Source: Escherichia phage Ec_MI-02
DNA: 64,000 nt
Direction: 5' to 3' (one strand)
Sequence record: OP856590.1
The notes under the pieces were generated by a model. That model searched no databases. It had not been told where the DNA came from and saw nothing but the letters and a program-made list of their open reading frames with translations. Both the position numbers and the translations under genes were made by a program. Below, one piece after another: positions 15,644 through 63,840 of this stretch (positions are counted from its first letter, which is position 1; every line of letters starts with the position of its first letter).

Positions 15644-15844
15644 TCATTTTGAATGCTCTATAATTAATTTTAAGGCTTCTTTACTGACAAAAATTTCATC
15701 AAGACCTTCTTCTACACCCCAATCAACTGCACGAAGCTGATTAGATAAGAGCTCGTATGTGAGCTCTTTGTCATAATTTTTAAATAGCTGGTCAATACGT
15801 TTCTTGTGGGCTTTCTTAAGCTGGCGTTTATTTAAACGAGCCAT
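15644..15844 (-). CDS. hypothetical protein (66 aa)
   Basis: ATG start; ATGA overlap with gene 56. Confidence 0.5.
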   Translation of the reverse strand: MARLNKRQLKKAHKKRIDQLFKNYDKELTYELLSNQLRAVDWGVEEGLDEIFVSKEALKLIIEHSK

Positions 15845-16362
15845 TAATAACCTCGGTCTTGACGAGCGAAGTTTTCAGCATTTTTCAGATAATAAAGTTT
15901 AAAGATTTCTTCAGCTGACATTCCAAGAGCAATAAATTTATTCATGAAAAAGTGAAATTGATCAATCAATTCAAATTTAATTTCAAGTTGATCTTCAGGA
16001 GATAAATCTTGAATTTTCTTGGATTGCATTTCAGAATAACGTTTCTTCCAAGGTTTCCATACAGCAGAAGCTTCTTTTTCGCCATTACTCATACCACCAA
16101 GAGAAGTATATAGCTCGCGAGTTTCGTCTGCGATATAATCGTCTTGGTTTCGCAGCCAAGCAAGAACTTCTCCTGCAGTTTCAAGTGAATCGGGATGACG
16201 ATTTGTTTCTGGTTTATCATTAGCCAAACGAATCTGTAAATGCCGCTGCATATCAAGCATAACTTGCAGTGGGTCAATATTGTGCATAATATTCTCAGCA
16301 TATGCACGATTTGCTTTATCAACACCTTCGATCAAATGAGCGCATTCATTAAAGTAAGCCAT
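15844..16362 (-). CDS. 56: dCTPase/dUTPase gp56-like (172 aa)
   Basis: position between soc and 61; track ORF (203 aa) trimmed to first ATG with AAGGA SD; identity by position and size. Confidence 0.6.
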   Translation of the reverse strand: MAYFNECAHLIEGVDKANRAYAENIMHNIDPLQVMLDMQRHLQIRLANDKPETNRHPDSLETAGEVLAWLRNQDDYIADETRELYTSLGGMSNGEKEASAVWKPWKKRYSEMQSKKIQDLSPEDQLEIKFELIDQFHFFMNKFIALGMSAEEIFKLYYLKNAENFARQDRGY

Positions 16363-16433
16363 TATTTTTCCTTTCAATTCATGGGTTAGTAGATTAATTA
16401 TACAATAAATATATAAAGCAATAAGGAGGATAT

Positions 16434-16634
16434 ATGGTACAAAAATTAATGGCACTTGTTAATGCCATAAAAGGTAATAAAAAACGTATAGCTTTTACTA
16501 TTTCTGCTATGATAGGAATTTTACTCTGGAATTTTGTTTTATCACCAATTGCTATTGCTCATGGTGTTAATATTCCAGTAATTACTCTTGATACATTCGT
16601 AGATTTAGCATTTGCTTTAGTTGGGTTAATTTAA
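16434..16634 (+). CDS. small single-pass membrane protein (66 aa), plus strand
   Basis: ATG 4 nt after AAGGAGG SD; hydrophobic helix AFTISAMIGILLWNFVLSPIAIA; convergent with gene 61 (stop codons overlap). Confidence 0.45.
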   Translation: MVQKLMALVNAIKGNKKRIAFTISAMIGILLWNFVLSPIAIAHGVNIPVITLDTFVDLAFALVGLI

Positions 16635-17659
16635 ATCTTAGCATATTTAGATAGCCGCATTTTAGCCATCAACCCTTGGGCAATATTATTTTTCATATAT
16701 TCCATAATTTGTTTAGGGGTTGCACCTTCCTTTCTAATCATATCATTAACATCTTTTGATTTCCAGGGAGATTTATCCCAAAACATAACCCTTTCTCCTG
16801 CATCAACTAATTTAGTCATTCGTTTAATAGTGTCAGGGTGACGAGGTTCATTATCTAAAACCCACACACGTCTATCTTTAAATGGAACAATTTCTAGGTC
16901 TAATTGACCGCCCGTAATAGCTATACCATTTTCAATAAAAAGTGAATCTATAGGTCCTTCTAGAACATATACATCACCATCTTTGACTCGTTCAACTCCA
17001 TAAATTTTTGTTGCCTCAGGATAAGCTTTGATGGTGATATATTTTTGAGGAGCATCTTTCTTTAATGCACGTCCTTGAAAAGACTCAGCTTTTCCATTAG
17101 CATTATAAATTGGAATAACAAGACGAGGCTCAGGTATTTCCTTTTTATATGTTCCTGGCGCTATACTATTAACTAATTTAGGCCATTCGGTTGTAAACCA
17201 AAGATATTTCCATTTATCCTTTGGAATACAACGAGCTTTTACATATTTTATAATTGGATGGTCTTCCGCCAATTTATCTAATCTAATGCATGACGGAAGA
17301 GATTTAATTATTTTCTTCTCAGGTTGTTTAGGAAGTTCTTTAGGTTTTTCTACTGGACGACTTTTACCTTTTTCTTTTCTTATTTCAAAGATATATTCAC
17401 GATATAAATCAGGTTCAAACTCCTTTAAATATATTCCGATTGGTGCATGATAGTTACAGTTATAACAATGAATATTTCCTTCATTATTATCGCCATAATA
17501 CCATCCACGGGCTTTATTTTGGTCGGTTTTTGAATCTCCACAAACAGGGCATCTAAACCGTAATTTAAAAGTTGAACTATTATTTACTTGTGCGAATTTA
17601 GGTAAATGAGCTAATGCACGGTATGCAAACTCATTATCAATCCAAGGTATTGATGACAT
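16631..17659 (-). CDS. 61: DNA primase gp61 (342 aa)
   Basis: 342 aa; N-terminal zinc ribbon CPVCGDSK...CYNC; ATG confirmed. Confidence 0.9.
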   Translation of the reverse strand: MSSIPWIDNEFAYRALAHLPKFAQVNNSSTFKLRFRCPVCGDSKTDQNKARGWYYGDNNEGNIHCYNCNYHAPIGIYLKEFEPDLYREYIFEIRKEKGKSRPVEKPKELPKQPEKKIIKSLPSCIRLDKLAEDHPIIKYVKARCIPKDKWKYLWFTTEWPKLVNSIAPGTYKKEIPEPRLVIPIYNANGKAESFQGRALKKDAPQKYITIKAYPEATKIYGVERVKDGDVYVLEGPIDSLFIENGIAITGGQLDLEIVPFKDRRVWVLDNEPRHPDTIKRMTKLVDAGERVMFWDKSPWKSKDVNDMIRKEGATPKQIMEYMKNNIAQGLMAKMRLSKYAKI

Positions 17660-17661
17660 TT

Positions 17662-17826
17662 TTACTCTTCTTTTTCTTTAGATTCCTCTTTTTTCTTTTT
17701 AGGAATCTGTTCAGGACCTTTATTTACTACAGCGCCTGACGTTGTTCCAGTGGAGATATTTTCAGGATTACCACCTGAATCTCCAGCTACCATATCTTCT
17801 TTGATAAATTCTTTATATGTTTTCAT
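17662..17826 (-). CDS. small hypothetical protein (54 aa) with capsid-targeting-like N-terminus
   Basis: not in track; ATG MKTYKEFIKEDMVAG...; directly upstream of gene 61. Confidence 0.4.
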   Translation of the reverse strand: MKTYKEFIKEDMVAGDSGGNPENISTGTTSGAVVNKGPEQIPKKKKEESKEKEE

Positions 17827-17827
17827 A

Positions 17828-18184
17828 TTAACCTCTATTCATAAAAGCATTAAAAATTTGGTCATCAATCGATGGAATAGCAACTTTTTCTGCGTCATTT
17901 AGCAAATCATTAATTTCATCAGATAGCATAACGCATGTACCTTTATTTCCTGTAATTGTTACTGCACAATTACGAACGTTTTCTTTATCAAATTTTAGGT
18001 TAATATTTTCGTAGTGAAAATCCTTTAATGCCGAATATATTTTTAAAATGAAATTGTCTTTTACTACAATAAACCCAACCTCACTATTAAAACGCGGTTC
18101 ATGGAAGCTGTAATAAATCTTTTCATCTATAAAATCGTATGAAATTTTTTCCATTTTTAAATATGAAAATTCAGAACTATACAT
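17828..18184 (-). CDS. hypothetical protein (118 aa)
   Basis: ORF track coordinates kept; printed sequence near the start is inconsistent with the track translation by 1 nt. Confidence 0.5.
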   Translation of the reverse strand: MYSSEFSYLKMEKISYDFIDEKIYYSFHEPRFNSEVGFIVVKDNFILKIYSALKDFHYENINLKFDKENVRNCAVTITGNKGTCVMLSDEINDLLNDAEKVAIPSIDDQIFNAFMNRG

Positions 18185-18196
18185 ACTAACCTCTAA

Positions 18197-18490
18197 TTAC
18201 TCACCTACCACTTCAGCGATGATATTTTTATTATTAAAGTTTTTATCGCAATACAGAACATAATTATACTGCATTACACCACCAGACTTAAGCTGTTTTT
18301 GTACTTCAGCTTTCATTTCAGGACGGTCACGCTCAACGATATTCATAATATCTGCTTCAATTTGAGTTTCAACTTCAGTCTGATCTGCAGTCATAGACCA
18401 TTCACACAAATCTTTGTCATAACCCGCCATAGCAGGCTGAGCAGCGCAAGAAGATAAGGCAAAAATTGCAGCAAAGATAAATTTTTTCAT
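18197..18490 (-). CDS. sp: Spackle periplasmic protein (97 aa)
   Basis: 97 aa with cleavable signal peptide; position between 61 and 41. Confidence 0.7.
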   Translation of the reverse strand: MKKFIFAAIFALSSCAAQPAMAGYDKDLCEWSMTADQTEVETQIEADIMNIVERDRPEMKAEVQKQLKSGGVMQYNYVLYCDKNFNNKNIIAEVVGE

Positions 18491-18515
18491 GATAATCTCC
18501 TCAGTAGTTTATGTT

Positions 18516-18546
18516 TATAGTATCTCAATTTTCAACAAAAGTAAAC
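18516..18546 (-). promoter_or_regulatory. T4 early-type promoter upstream of sp
   Basis: GTTTAC-N18-TACTAT. Confidence 0.45.
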
Positions 18547-18593
18547 ACTAGTAGAAGCAAACAGACAAATTGTAATAATTGGTGATTTCAGTT

Positions 18594-18776
18594 TCATTCT
18601 TCTCCTCCTTCATGTTGATGAACATATTCTTTTTCAAGTCTAGAGCACAAGTTTTCATATTCAACTAATAAAAATGAATCAAGTGCGTTATTTCTATGCT
18701 GACACCGTTCTTGTAAAGAATCCATCTCTGAACGTTGTTCTTGTGTTAATAATTGATAACCTGATACTTTAGACAT
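18594..18776 (-). CDS. hypothetical protein (60 aa)
   Basis: ATG start; early promoter upstream. Confidence 0.5.
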   Translation of the reverse strand: MSKVSGYQLLTQEQRSEMDSLQERCQHRNNALDSFLLVEYENLCSRLEKEYVHQHEGGEE

Positions 18777-18805
18777 TTTGTTCTCCGCAATTAGCTGATA
18801 GAATT

Positions 18806-18835
18806 ACTATAACACAACTCTATCAGCTTGTAAAC
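18806..18835 (-). promoter_or_regulatory. T4 early-type promoter
   Basis: GTTTAC-N18-TATAGT. Confidence 0.45.
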
Positions 18836-18837
18836 TA

Positions 18838-19080
18838 CTATTTTACTAGCATCAATAACTGTTTCTCTAACTTGACGATTTTACGAAAGTATCTTTTGCA
18901 TTGGCGAATCTGTCGCTTCGTAGGACGTACAGCAAACTTAATAAATTCCACTCGACCAAATGGAGGACTTTCTTCTGCTGGAATATCTAGCACCAATTCC
19001 CACGTATCTGCAATAAGTGCTTTGAATTGTGTATTTTTCCTGACGTTATACGGAGTAGGTTTAAATAAAACAATATGCAT
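18838..19080 (-). CDS. hypothetical basic protein (80 aa)
   Basis: ATG start; early promoter upstream. Confidence 0.5.
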   Translation of the reverse strand: MHIVLFKPTPYNVRKNTQFKALIADTWELVLDIPAEESPPFGRVEFIKFAVRPTKRQIRQCKRYFRKIVKLEKQLLMLVK

Positions 19081-19081
19081 A

Positions 19082-19264
19082 TTATCCTCGGCAATCTACT
19101 TCACATACTTTCTTGTCATCAATGAAAGCTTTAACTAATGCTTTATTAACTTCAGCATATTGAGTAGTAGCCCATTGAACGTCATCTTTCATCATTGTGA
19201 TTTCTTTAGTAAACATGCTTTCGTTCTTAAACCACCCCATAAAAACTACCTTTACCAATTCCAT
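19082..19264 (-). CDS. hypothetical protein (60 aa), possible dmd-like antitoxin
   Basis: ATG start; 60 aa, immediately upstream of gene 41 interval where T4 encodes dmd; identity unverified. Confidence 0.45.
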   Translation of the reverse strand: MELVKVVFMGWFKNESMFTKEITMMKDDVQWATTQYAEVNKALVKAFIDDKKVCEVDCRG

Positions 19265-19293
19265 AACAATCTCCTCATTTAACCAACAAGACT

Positions 19294-19323
19294 ACTATAC
19301 CATAGTCTTGTCAGCTTGTAAAC
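19294..19323 (-). promoter_or_regulatory. T4 early-type promoter
   Basis: GTTTAC-N18-TATAGT. Confidence 0.5.
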
Positions 19324-20750
19324 TAAAATTTTAATTCATTTGCCAAAGCATCTAACTGAGCTCGAGTGGATTCATTTCTTTGATAGCGATTCTGCTCAGC
19401 CTGAATCTGTTGTGAACCTGCTACTTCACTCACTTCAGTTGGAGTAGAATCTTGTTCAATTTCTACCCATTTCTGATTTCCTTTTTGAACACCCATCAAA
19501 AACTTATTCCATTTGTTCTTATCGCCATATCGTGATTTGATTTGCTTAATGAGTTGTTGTTCAGCAGCTGCTAACTCCTCAGTTTCAATGACCGCAAGCA
19601 TAAAATCAGCTGTTGCTGGAAGACCAGCAGATTCTGCAATATCGCTCATGTTAACATCAGAAGAATCCCAAGCTTGTTTGCCGACCTGTGCTGCAGTCCA
19701 AAGAACAGTTTCGGTTTCAACAGCCAGAGCACGCAATTCCTCTGCAATAGCTTTAACAGTTGTGTAACTATTTTCTGAATAAACTCTAATGCGGCAAGAT
19801 TTACAAATACCTAGATAGTCGACAATAATGATTGTTGGAATAAAATTCTTCTTGAGCTTCAATTCGTTTAAAAGAGATCGAAATGTATTAGCGTCTGCTC
19901 CACCAGTAGGATATTGCTTAACGATTAAACGACCGAGAGTAGATTTCTCACGCCATTTTTCCATTTTTCCTTTATATTCAGCGTAAGAAATATGCCCATC
20001 ATCAATGTCATCAAGAGAAACATCAAGCATATTAGCATCAATACGTTTAGCACAAACTTCTTCTGCCATTTCCATGGAAATGTAAAGAACATTGTGTCCG
20101 AGCTGCAAATAATCTGCTGCCAATGAACACAATCCTAATGACTTACCAACGTTAACACCAGCCATTAAAACATTCAGTGTTCCAGTTTCAGCTCCGCCTT
20201 TAGTAATTTTATTTAGAATTTTGAGTTTAAATGGAACCTTACGAGCTTTATTCATATAAGATAGCCAACGTGCTTCGTAGTCATCCATCCAATCATGACC
20301 AACGTAACTATCAAATGAAATTGATAATGCTTGGCGCATGATGTCAGGAATAGCACCAACATCCGGCATTTTCTTATTTCGTTTTTCCGGAGGAAGCTCA
20401 GCATTAGTTTGAATTTCAATTATTTTAGATGTGGCGTTAAACATCGCCCTTTGCTGAACATATTTTTCTGTTTCTTTTACTAACCAGCTGTGGTCTTCTG
20501 GAGAATCGGCTAGTTTCGAAATAAGTGTTTTTACACCAGAATATTCTGTTTCAGTAAATGAACTATTTTCTAATGCAACATTTAACGCATTAATAGATGG
20601 AACGCTATGGTACTCATTAACATGAGATTTAATTAATTTGAATGTATTTTTAGCTGGACCACTTTCAAAATATTCTGAATCCATATATGGCCAAACTTTT
20701 GAAAAATAAGCTTGATCAAATATGAGATGAGAAAGAATAATTTCTACCAC
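19323..20750 (-). CDS. 41: replicative DNA helicase gp41 (DnaB-like, 475 aa)
   Basis: 475 aa; Walker A GVNVGKS; track start codon is GTG. Confidence 0.9.
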   Translation of the reverse strand: MVEIILSHLIFDQAYFSKVWPYMDSEYFESGPAKNTFKLIKSHVNEYHSVPSINALNVALENSSFTETEYSGVKTLISKLADSPEDHSWLVKETEKYVQQRAMFNATSKIIEIQTNAELPPEKRNKKMPDVGAIPDIMRQALSISFDSYVGHDWMDDYEARWLSYMNKARKVPFKLKILNKITKGGAETGTLNVLMAGVNVGKSLGLCSLAADYLQLGHNVLYISMEMAEEVCAKRIDANMLDVSLDDIDDGHISYAEYKGKMEKWREKSTLGRLIVKQYPTGGADANTFRSLLNELKLKKNFIPTIIIVDYLGICKSCRIRVYSENSYTTVKAIAEELRALAVETETVLWTAAQVGKQAWDSSDVNMSDIAESAGLPATADFMLAVIETEELAAAEQQLIKQIKSRYGDKNKWNKFLMGVQKGNQKWVEIEQDSTPTEVSEVAGSQQIQAEQNRYQRNESTRAQLDALANELKF

Positions 20751-62940: not shown

Positions 62941-63414
62941 TTATTTGAATGATTTGACGTACTGAATAGAGCCTTTGCTATTCACGAAAGCGATTTTACC
63001 ATTTTTGTTATACATGGTAGCAGTACGCTGATAACCATAAGTTTGTTTACCAGATTGATAACCAACTAATGCGAAATTATCTTCACCCATTTTATTCTGC
63101 TTAGCGCGGATACGTTCATGACCGTGTGCCATAAGAACCTTAGCGTCGCCAGTTGCAATGGATCTACGAGTTTTTTCATCTTCAACTGTATTAACAAAAT
63201 CGTCAAATGAATCAAATTTAGCATGAGATTTATTATACAGTTTTCCATCTACTGCATAATTATATCCCTGTACATCCATCTCAACTTCTGTACCATCATC
63301 CAATACAGCAGTGATTTTTTGACCTTTTTTAAATTTCAAAAGATCAGTAAAAGATTCAGCGATAATTTGAGAATTAATAGCTGCTTCAGTGATAAATTCT
63401 TGATATGTTTTCAT
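62941..63414 (-). CDS. internal-protein-like protein with capsid targeting sequence (157 aa)
   Basis: N-terminus MKTYQEFITEA matches the T4 internal protein CTS; basic protein. Confidence 0.6.
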   Translation of the reverse strand: MKTYQEFITEAAINSQIIAESFTDLLKFKKGQKITAVLDDGTEVEMDVQGYNYAVDGKLYNKSHAKFDSFDDFVNTVEDEKTRRSIATGDAKVLMAHGHERIRAKQNKMGEDNFALVGYQSGKQTYGYQRTATMYNKNGKIAFVNSKGSIQYVKSFK

Positions 63415-63423
63415 GTGTTTCCT

Positions 63424-63840
63424 TTAAATGTAAATAGTTTTACCGTAGTATTTATACCAGTATGGCTTCATTAAAATTTTTTCATCGAGTCGTTGTTGAC
63501 TCAACTTAATAGCTGATTTGCATGGATTATAATCATTTTTCCATTCTGCTGGAATATCGCTGATGTCAGGAACTTCAGTATCTTTTATACTAAACCCACG
63601 TTTTAAGCATTCCGTTATAATGTCTGATTGACGCTTTCGCAAAAATTCTAACTTATCGTAAAAGAACGTGACATGACCAGAACCTAAAATAAACTCGGAA
63701 GATATTTTAAAATCTTTAACCCGCTTACCATTTGCAACATGTTTACGAACTATACCAAAAACACGCGGCAGTTCACGGTATTCTGCGATTAAATGTTGAT
63801 CAGCAAGTTCAGATACTAAAGTCAAATTAATACGAGTCAT
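63424..63840 (-). CDS. denV: endonuclease V (pyrimidine dimer DNA glycosylase, 138 aa)
   Basis: 138 aa; [17 protein letters not shown] start; ATG confirmed. Confidence 0.9.

Follow-up and report, generated by a model that had tools for sequence, protein, structure and literature searches.

In phage T4, the interval between the primase gene 61 and the helicase gene 41 contains dmd (61.5), tifA (61.4) and adfA (61.2), with dmd-tifA driven by an early promoter upstream of dmd, and the region was named the anti-toxin–antitoxin (anti-TA) island (Srikant et al. 2022; PMC9391042). Two sets of T4 head proteins are also relevant here. [quoted passage not shown] We analysed 64,000 nucleotides (nt) of Escherichia phage Ec_MI-02 (OP856590.1), referred to below as the window, in which positions 17662..19264 hold the corresponding interval. 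A sequence-only reading of the window had pointed to small open reading frames (ORFs) and sp between the two replication genes, among them an ORF of 54 amino acids (aa) with a CTS-like start. This ORF, gene 61.1, encodes a protein (gp61.1) that is, by homology, a small paralogue of the gp23 propeptide/N-terminal-arm junction. The earlier reading had missed this relationship, which spans gp61.1 residues 2-38, along with the family of such proteins across T4-like genera.

gp61.1 and the gp23 maturation junction

The first sign of the relationship was a tblastn match of gp61.1 (MKTYKEFIKEDMVAGDSGGNPENISTGTTSGAVVNKGPEQIPKKKKEESKEKEE) to gene 23 of Acinetobacter phage 133. Against T4 gp23, BLASTP aligned gp61.1 residues 2-38 gap-free with gp23 residues 57-93 (16/37 identical, E 1e-8), and gp23 was the sole significant match in a sequence search of the PDB. 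Seven 61.1 homologues from six genera all matched gp23 between residues 44 and 106, and a reciprocal tblastn search with gp23 residues 56-101 returned approximately 217 extra places beyond gene 23. The family core has the consensus x[MV]VAGD[SA]GGxxxNIA[SA]Gx[TN][ST]Gx[VI]xxxGP. A hidden Markov model (HMM) of this core scored 49.6 bits against T4 gp23 and 55 bits against phage 133 gp23, compared with a best score of 4.4 bits among 1050 controls (among them 544 window ORFs and 500 shuffled gp23 sequences). A compositional artefact was ruled out by a local-shuffle control, in which the native gp23 segment scored 55.2 bits and 2000 shuffles of the same segment reached at most 10.8 bits. Over the aligned codons, 61.1 and gene 23 shared 50% nucleotide identity, with 30% at third positions, which indicates an ancient relationship and rules out recent gene conversion from gene 23. 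The GDSGG motif was also considered as a serine-protease active site and rejected: gp23 has His in place of the Ser, and across the family this site may be S, A, H or C, with Y at adjacent positions.

The alignment placed I8-K9-E10↓D11 of gp61.1 gap-free and exactly on the gp23 maturation cleavage site, L63-T64-E65↓A66 (arrows mark the scissile bond). The part of gp61.1 after E10 corresponds to the first approximately 36 residues of mature gp23 (gp23*). Residues 66-105 of mature gp23 are disordered, internal and core-facing in the unexpanded head, where this segment probably touches the scaffolding core; it carries head-length mutations and is later externalised as the N-arm and N-fist (PMC9546572). 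The likeness covers the context Phi-x-E↓x-x-[VI]-[GA]-G-D, the motif NIA-G-TSG-V, the GP and the basic residues that follow, the Lys/Glu tail of gp61.1 aligning with R100-R101 of gp23. It also includes disorder, which in gp23 persists unless the segment is locked in the expanded lattice: AlphaFold2 predicted a disordered core for short and long family members alike, with only a short helix over the leader (residues 4-10). Unlike gp23, gp61.1 is only 54 aa long, its homology is confined to gp23 57-101, and it has none of the A, P and I domains of the HK97 fold, and therefore it is not a possible shell subunit. Several GenBank records name the 61.1 ORF "major capsid domain-containing protein", a label that overstates what gp61.1 is.

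The leader of gp61.1, MKTYKEFIKE, was identical at 8/10 positions to the start of T4 IPII and IPIII (MKTYQEFIAE), and also at 8/10 to that of the window's own internal protein (MKTYQEFITE). In a six-frame scan of the window, just two 10-mers matched MKTYQEFIAE at 6/10 or better, both at ORF starts: the internal-protein gene (9/10) and 61.1 (8/10). When the window was shuffled twenty times, the best match was no higher than 6/10. The capsid-targeting-like start of gp61.1 is real and not a chance match. According to the summary of Mullaney & Black in PMC9026906, residues 4 and 7 of the CTS serve targeting and residues 8 and 10 serve processing; gp61.1 keeps all four (Y4 and F7, I8 and E10). The leader ends with a predicted gp21 site of the (L/I)-x-E type. 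The near-match to the targeting signal with an I-x-E site, as described in the sequence-only reading, thus holds at the sequence level, as does the Lys/Glu-rich tail, KKKKEESKEKEE.

The window's internal-protein-type gene (62941..63414, minus strand) encodes 157 aa, starts with MKTYQEFITE↓AAINS and lies immediately downstream of denV (63424..63840). A late promoter, TATAAATA, is present at 63449..63456 on the minus strand, 35 nt upstream of its start codon. Since the body is unrelated to T4 IPII or IPIII, the product belongs to the polymorphic internal proteins. The residues following the cleavage site are alike in T4 IPII (A-R-V-G-A-G), gp23 (A-E-I-G-G-D) and gp61.1 (D-M-V-A-G-D), a similarity which hints that the internal-protein leader and the first mature residues may share ancestry with the gp23 junction.

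gp61.1 resembles T4 IPI, IPII, IPIII and the polymorphic internal proteins in its leader (MKTY-EFI-E, with residues 4, 7, 8 and 10), its Lys-rich body and its laboratory dispensability. Unlike them, it has a body of 44 residues that copies the gp23 N-arm and is not a folded anti-restriction protein, lacks a late promoter, and is encoded between genes 41 and 61 and not in the internal-protein locus. It is conserved across genera, whereas the internal proteins are hypervariable, and it is known here from sequence and not from virions. In distant 61.1 members, a helical domain of approximately 100 residues takes the place of the 10-residue leader.

Homologues of 61.1 occur in 1396 phage records, and when 1.84 billion representative proteins were searched exhaustively with a profile, 51 family clusters at 50% identity emerged. 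The gene sits in the 41-61 interval in Tequatrovirus, Jiaodavirus, Krischvirus, Pseudotevenvirus, an Aeromonas Tulanevirus, an Acinetobacter Twarogvirinae phage and the KVP40 group. Unlike 61.1, which is conserved throughout the T4-like family, the other island genes come and go across those genera. The 61.1 family is near-universal in T4-like phages. Short forms have 50-70 aa and mostly a CTS-like start (M-K-x-F-x-E-F-Phi-x-E). Long forms of 130-165 aa (RB43, Ac42, KVP40) have a confidently predicted helical N-domain of approximately 100 residues, for which there was no Pfam family and no Foldseek match in the PDB at E below 4. An origin as a copy of the gp23 propeptide, or of any other sequence in the window, was rejected (an HMM of the domain scored at most 7 bits among window ORFs, gp23, gp24, gp22, gp67, gp68 and gp21). 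In architecture, the long forms resemble the head proteins of the giant phage SPN3US, whose propeptides (>100 residues) target to the prohead and are removed by the protease: here, too, a domain of approximately 100 residues precedes Phi-x-E. The resemblance is one of architecture only. A related-locus search with RB43 gp61.1 returned only close relatives.

The Glu aligned with gp23 E65 (P1) was present in 66/66 family members, short and long, and the P3 position was hydrophobic (L, I, M, F or V) in 61/66. E10, G15, D16, G27 and G31 were invariant across genera. A run of at least three K/R residues follows the GP motif in 60/66 members (the basic cluster), and the mean net charge of the family over the 16 residues from the Pro of this motif was +4.2. 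Some members from distant phages (P0037, P0053 and P0058; 237-251 aa and 149 aa) carry an additional domain C-terminal to the gp61.1 core. This domain opens with a second CTS-like stretch (MNEVSNFKQFVEGLE / MTEMVDFKQFVESLE), which looks like an in-frame fusion to a CTS-led gene located downstream. Two metagenome-derived copies (P0018 and P0038) show systematic replacements relative to T4 (T>I, S>F/L, P>F and A>V), e.g. MKIFKEFIKEDMVVGDLGGNFENIFIGIILGVVV; reading every C as T would give this pattern, which looks like a bisulfite-type or deamination artefact of assembled public reads and not a real variant.

The island itself and the automated "major capsid domain-containing" label on some 61.1 copies were already known. 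The literature searched contained neither the exact placement of gp61.1 on the maturation junction nor its pairing with an internal-protein leader, nor did it describe the conserved protease-type site of the long forms or the near-universality of the family.

Possible roles of gp61.1

On our preferred reading, gp61.1 is disordered and may both dock on the prohead core and serve as a substrate of the gp21 protease. It would be made early and would have two core-binding determinants, an internal-protein-type capsid-targeting helix (residues 1-10) and the gp23-like motif GD-GG...NIA-G-TSG, which in gp23 lies inside the unexpanded prohead, against the core. The predicted gp21 site lies between the two determinants, and with both flanking it gp61.1 would be expected to co-assemble with the core and to be cut after E10. 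Cleavage would free a 44-residue peptide, DMVAGD...KKKKEESKEKEE, which would start at D11 with DMVAGDSGGNPENIS and read on (T/I)GTTSGAVVNK. Through its basic cluster, the 44-mer could remain associated with the packaged DNA and so form a minor internal peptide; alternatively, it might compete with gp23 N-termini for contacts with the core or the protease.

A number of observations weigh against a role in the head. The late, or early plus late, expression by which a CTS-bearing internal protein would be supplied during prohead assembly is not seen for 61.1, and no late promoter of the TATAAATA type occurs anywhere in the 61-41 interval. A time-resolved omics study classed T4 61.1 mRNA as early and gave the protein no proteome class (PMC9697503, supplement). 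Knock-down of T4 61.1 with dCas13d caused no fitness defect in a 2025 study, which lists the gene as of unknown function (PMC11879866, supplements). In PMC9546572 and the T4 head literature searched, gp61.1 is absent from the lists of prohead and head components; it is not mentioned in a T4 head mass-spectrometry paper or the supplements searched, and the literature searched contained no report of it in virions. On its function, that literature yielded gene tables only. The position of 61.1 is conserved beside replication genes and not at head-gene or internal-protein loci. There is a precedent for a head protein made early, since gene 40, which encodes a head-assembly factor, lies in the same early cluster. 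Given that 61.1 is expressed only early, has not been reported from virions and sits among replication genes, we hold docking and cleavage tentatively, as something we would accept almost as readily as reject. The interpretation given in the sequence-only reading accordingly survives in part: the island and the leader stand, and a role of gp61.1 as an internal protein is not established (no late promoter, an early transcript, no virion report).

The main rival is a cytoplasmic mimic. Early gp61.1 would occupy a factor that recognises the gp23 N-terminal segment before gp23 appears, serving as decoy, competitor or primer and staying out of the head altogether; candidate targets are GroEL/gp31, elongation factor Tu (EF-Tu) or a capsid-sensing defence such as a Lit-type protease. 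The presence of early promoters only and the early transcript class fit this explanation, as does the direct binding by which other island members inhibit host toxins (PMC9391042). The N-terminal quarter of gp23 is documented to bind EF-Tu (Gol/Lit) and to send fusion proteins to GroEL. Laboratory dispensability of 61.1 is, moreover, expected of a conditional counter-defence gene. However, the family is near-universal and its position fixed across phages of Escherichia, Klebsiella, Acinetobacter, Aeromonas and Vibrio, whereas the neighbouring anti-defence genes are variable, and it is hard to see why a decoy should need an invariant protease-site Glu, a hydrophobic P3 residue or an internal-protein targeting leader. 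Since gp61.1 ends at approximately gp23 residue 101, it also lacks the strongly conserved AIPNLIAFDICGVQPM stretch of gp23, which we take to be the Gol core. We consider a mimic unlikely, though the strongest of the competing explanations.

A link to replication is less likely than a mimic, and we regard it as improbable. In that case gp61.1 would be a nucleic-acid-binding accessory of primase or helicase, or the ORF would couple translation of gene 61, and the resemblance to gp23 would be a leftover. The placement between 41 and 61 is conserved, with 61.1 immediately upstream of gene 61 in Tequatrovirus (2-nt gap), Ac42, Jiaodavirus and RB43, and the basic cluster would suit nucleic-acid binding. 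In Krischvirus and the Aeromonas phage, however, another ORF separates 61.1 from gene 61. It is also the peptide itself, with its gp23-like motif and cleavage-type site, that is conserved, and not merely an ORF, and no known DNA-binding fold was recognised, the long-form N-domain being without a Pfam or PDB match. The knock-down screen is uninformative on a replication role because the primase itself scored "Not Fit" (no fitness defect). Least likely of all, to the point of being hardly credible, is a functionless relic of an old partial gene 23 duplication kept by chance: its small size, unclassified status in the proteome data and lack of a knock-down phenotype would suit a relic, but the gene persists across the 1396 records and 51 clusters, with G15, D16, G27, G31 and E10 invariant, and the randomisation of third positions against gene 23 with the protein motif kept is the signature of long purifying selection.

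Pending further evidence, we therefore place gp61.1 only provisionally, by its sequence features, with the putative CTS-bearing, gp21-processed head-associated proteins. Beyond core docking and cleavage, we rate a wider proposal as quite unlikely. On it, the CTS would have arisen from the final ten residues of the gp23 propeptide, with gp61.1 as the link that shows this descent. The family, short and long, would bind the prohead core and be cut by gp21 in all T4-like phages, a role overlooked until now, and its released basic 44-mer would travel with the DNA into the next host or tune the engagement of the gp23 N-terminus with the scaffold, and hence head nucleation or length.

Few ORFs that still lack a name are conserved in practically every T4-like phage, and 61.1 is among them. 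Recognising in it the gp23 cleavage junction, copied behind an internal-protein leader, provides a specific hypothesis that is cheap to test. It also suggests an origin for the CTS, a sequence widely used to engineer cargo into T4 heads. The gp23 N-arm motif GD-GG...NIA-G-TSG may furthermore be a portable binding element, with the scaffold, protease, chaperonin and EF-Tu as candidate partners.

The early island and its promoter cassettes

The interval is an early anti-defence ("anti-TA") island of the T4 type whose mosaic differs slightly from that of T4, and as a published T4 region it is already known. The sequence-only reading had the extent of the small ORFs and sp exactly right: six ORFs, all on the minus strand, fill 17662..19264 between primase and helicase of this Tequatrovirus (Table 1). 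Its placing of dmd, adfA and tifA here agrees with PMC9391042. The window region was 96-98% identical to many Tequatrovirus genomes, most closely to those of ime09, IME339 and PP01, and the window is collinear with T4 genes 56, 61, 41, 40 and uvsX, all on the minus strand. Each of the six ORFs matched a PHROG family (E 1e-34 to 1e-72) and is therefore a gene and not a chance ORF; NCBIfam contained no family for any of the six proteins.

Table 1. Location of the genes, parts of gp61.1 and promoter elements in and around the 61-41 interval (window positions).
Feature	Position	Strand	Remarks
Gene 61, primase (downstream flank)	16631..17659	-	Same product annotated in ime09 and T4
61.1, 54 aa	17662..17826	-	52/54 identical to T4 gp61.1; phrog_1823, E 7e-34
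61.1, Lys/Glu tail, codons 43-54	17665..17700	-	Aligns with gp23 R100-R101
61.1, core, codons 11-42	17701..17796	-	Homologous to the start of mature gp23 (residues 66-97)
61.1, leader, codons 1-10	17797..17826	-	MKTYKEFIKE; ends at predicted gp21 site I8-K9-E10↓D11
61.2 (adfA) locus, short 118-aa allele	17828..18184	-	Pfam AdfA (PF23813), E 2.5e-8; phrog_4122 full-length
sp (spackle), 97 aa, periplasmic, signal peptide	18197..18490	-	Pfam T4_Spackle (PF25676), E 2.8e-45; 94/97 identical to T4 Sp
Promoter-like site upstream of sp	18517..18546	-	GTTTAC 18541-18546, 18-nt spacer, TACTAT 18517-18522
Accessory ORF, 60 aa, MSKVSGYQLL...	18594..18776	-	phrog_37915, E 9.5e-46; no T4 counterpart
PeSL-type cassette upstream of the 60-aa ORF	18782..18845	-	Early promoter overlapping hairpin, then Shine-Dalgarno sequence for the 60-aa ORF
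61.4 (tifA), ToxN inhibitor, 80 aa	18838..19080	-	Pfam DUF7279, E 2.1e-20; 74/76 identical to T4 gp61.4
dmd (61.5), 60 aa, predicted antitoxin-like inhibitor of RnlA/LsoA	19082..19264	-	Pfam Dmd (PF17587), E 1.6e-46; 60/60 identical to T4 Dmd
PeSL-type cassette upstream of dmd	19270..19333	-	Early promoter 19294-19322 overlapping hairpin; arms 19286-19294 / 19303-19311
Gene 41, replicative helicase (upstream flank)	19323..20750	-	Same product annotated in ime09 and T4

The island shares with that of T4 its locus, the early promoter upstream of dmd and near-identical dmd and tifA; sp is also almost unchanged. Inhibition of RnlA/LsoA by the window Dmd would be expected from its identity to T4 Dmd. 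TifA has 80 aa, compared with 85 in T4, and differs in its C-terminal 4 residues. Unlike T4, this phage has a truncated, divergent adfA allele and the extra 60-aa ORF, and the expected alignment with the T4 61.x proteins was accordingly obtained for dmd, sp, 61.4 and 61.1 (Table 1), only over the C-terminal half for 61.2, and not for the 60-aa ORF. The 118-aa 61.2 allele is not the full-length two-part AdfA (approximately 208-211 aa): its counterpart in T4 AdfA is the C-terminal half alone (profile positions 114-211 of 211), with 35% identity to T4 gp61.2 residues 109-208 and the last 14 residues identical. Given this partial coverage at 35% identity, anti-DarT activity is not to be assumed. 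The short allele is common (approximately 300 Tequatrovirus records). The 60-aa accessory ORF is rare, occurring in 20 phage records, all at least 95% identical, and matched no Pfam or NCBIfam family.

Both variable genes keep T4-identical edges, the last 14 codons in 61.2 (17828..17872) and all but the last 4 codons in tifA (3' end 18838..18850). This suggests recombination junctions just inside the coding regions, beside conserved flanks.

The sequence-only reading had credited each ORF with its own early promoter or tight coupling, and both were observed. A consensus scan gave two strong early-promoter matches, 19322..19294 upstream of dmd and 18834..18806 upstream of the 60-aa ORF. The site upstream of sp, GTTTAC-N18-TACTAT, was conserved in a DNA alignment of the window, T4 and ime09, and was not among the strongest matches of the scan. 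Gaps between adjacent genes were 1 nt (dmd/tifA), 12 nt (sp/61.2), 1 nt (61.2/61.1) and 2 nt (61.1/61), the last separating the 61.1 stop codon from the gene 61 ATG. A GAGG Shine-Dalgarno sequence lies 6 nt upstream of 61.1.

The two strong promoters lie in a 64-nt direct repeat (18782-18845 and 19270-19333, 72% identity), and in each copy the promoter overlaps a hairpin. In the copy upstream of the 60-aa ORF, the -35 element is TTTACA (18829-18834) and the -10 element TATAGT (18806-18811), with a scan score of 10/12 and an extended TG, and the hairpin arms are at 18793-18805 and 18816-18828. This arrangement corresponds to the PeSL architecture (early promoter plus stem-loop) defined for T4-like phages (PMC4122927). 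In a three-way alignment, ime09 had one more promoter-plus-ORF cassette exactly at the 64-nt repeat, which this phage lacks, and T4 had neither cassette; the indel against ime09 and T4 falls exactly on the cassette at 18782..18845. The repeated promoter and hairpin, the flanking small ORFs and the indel boundaries are those of the PeSL cassettes described previously (Arbiol 2010; Comeau 2014), of which this is an ordinary instance with no difference noted. The island is built of PeSL cassettes that swap small ORFs in and out.

Two minor features of the region were also observed. A MotA-box-like AATGCTTTT (17843..17851, minus strand) is followed, 12 nt downstream, by TAATAT (17825..17830, minus strand), which overlaps the 61.1 start codon, and the arrangement is identical in T4. 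If this pair is a middle promoter, transcripts would begin inside 61.1 and express gene 61 without 61.1. On the other side of the primase gene, T4 carries dam between genes 56 and 61, for which tblastn found no homologue in the window. The dam position (15844..16634) instead holds a 66-aa plus-strand ORF (16434..16634) that has a hydrophobic, membrane-like appearance and is RB69ORF029w-like according to the ime09 annotation.

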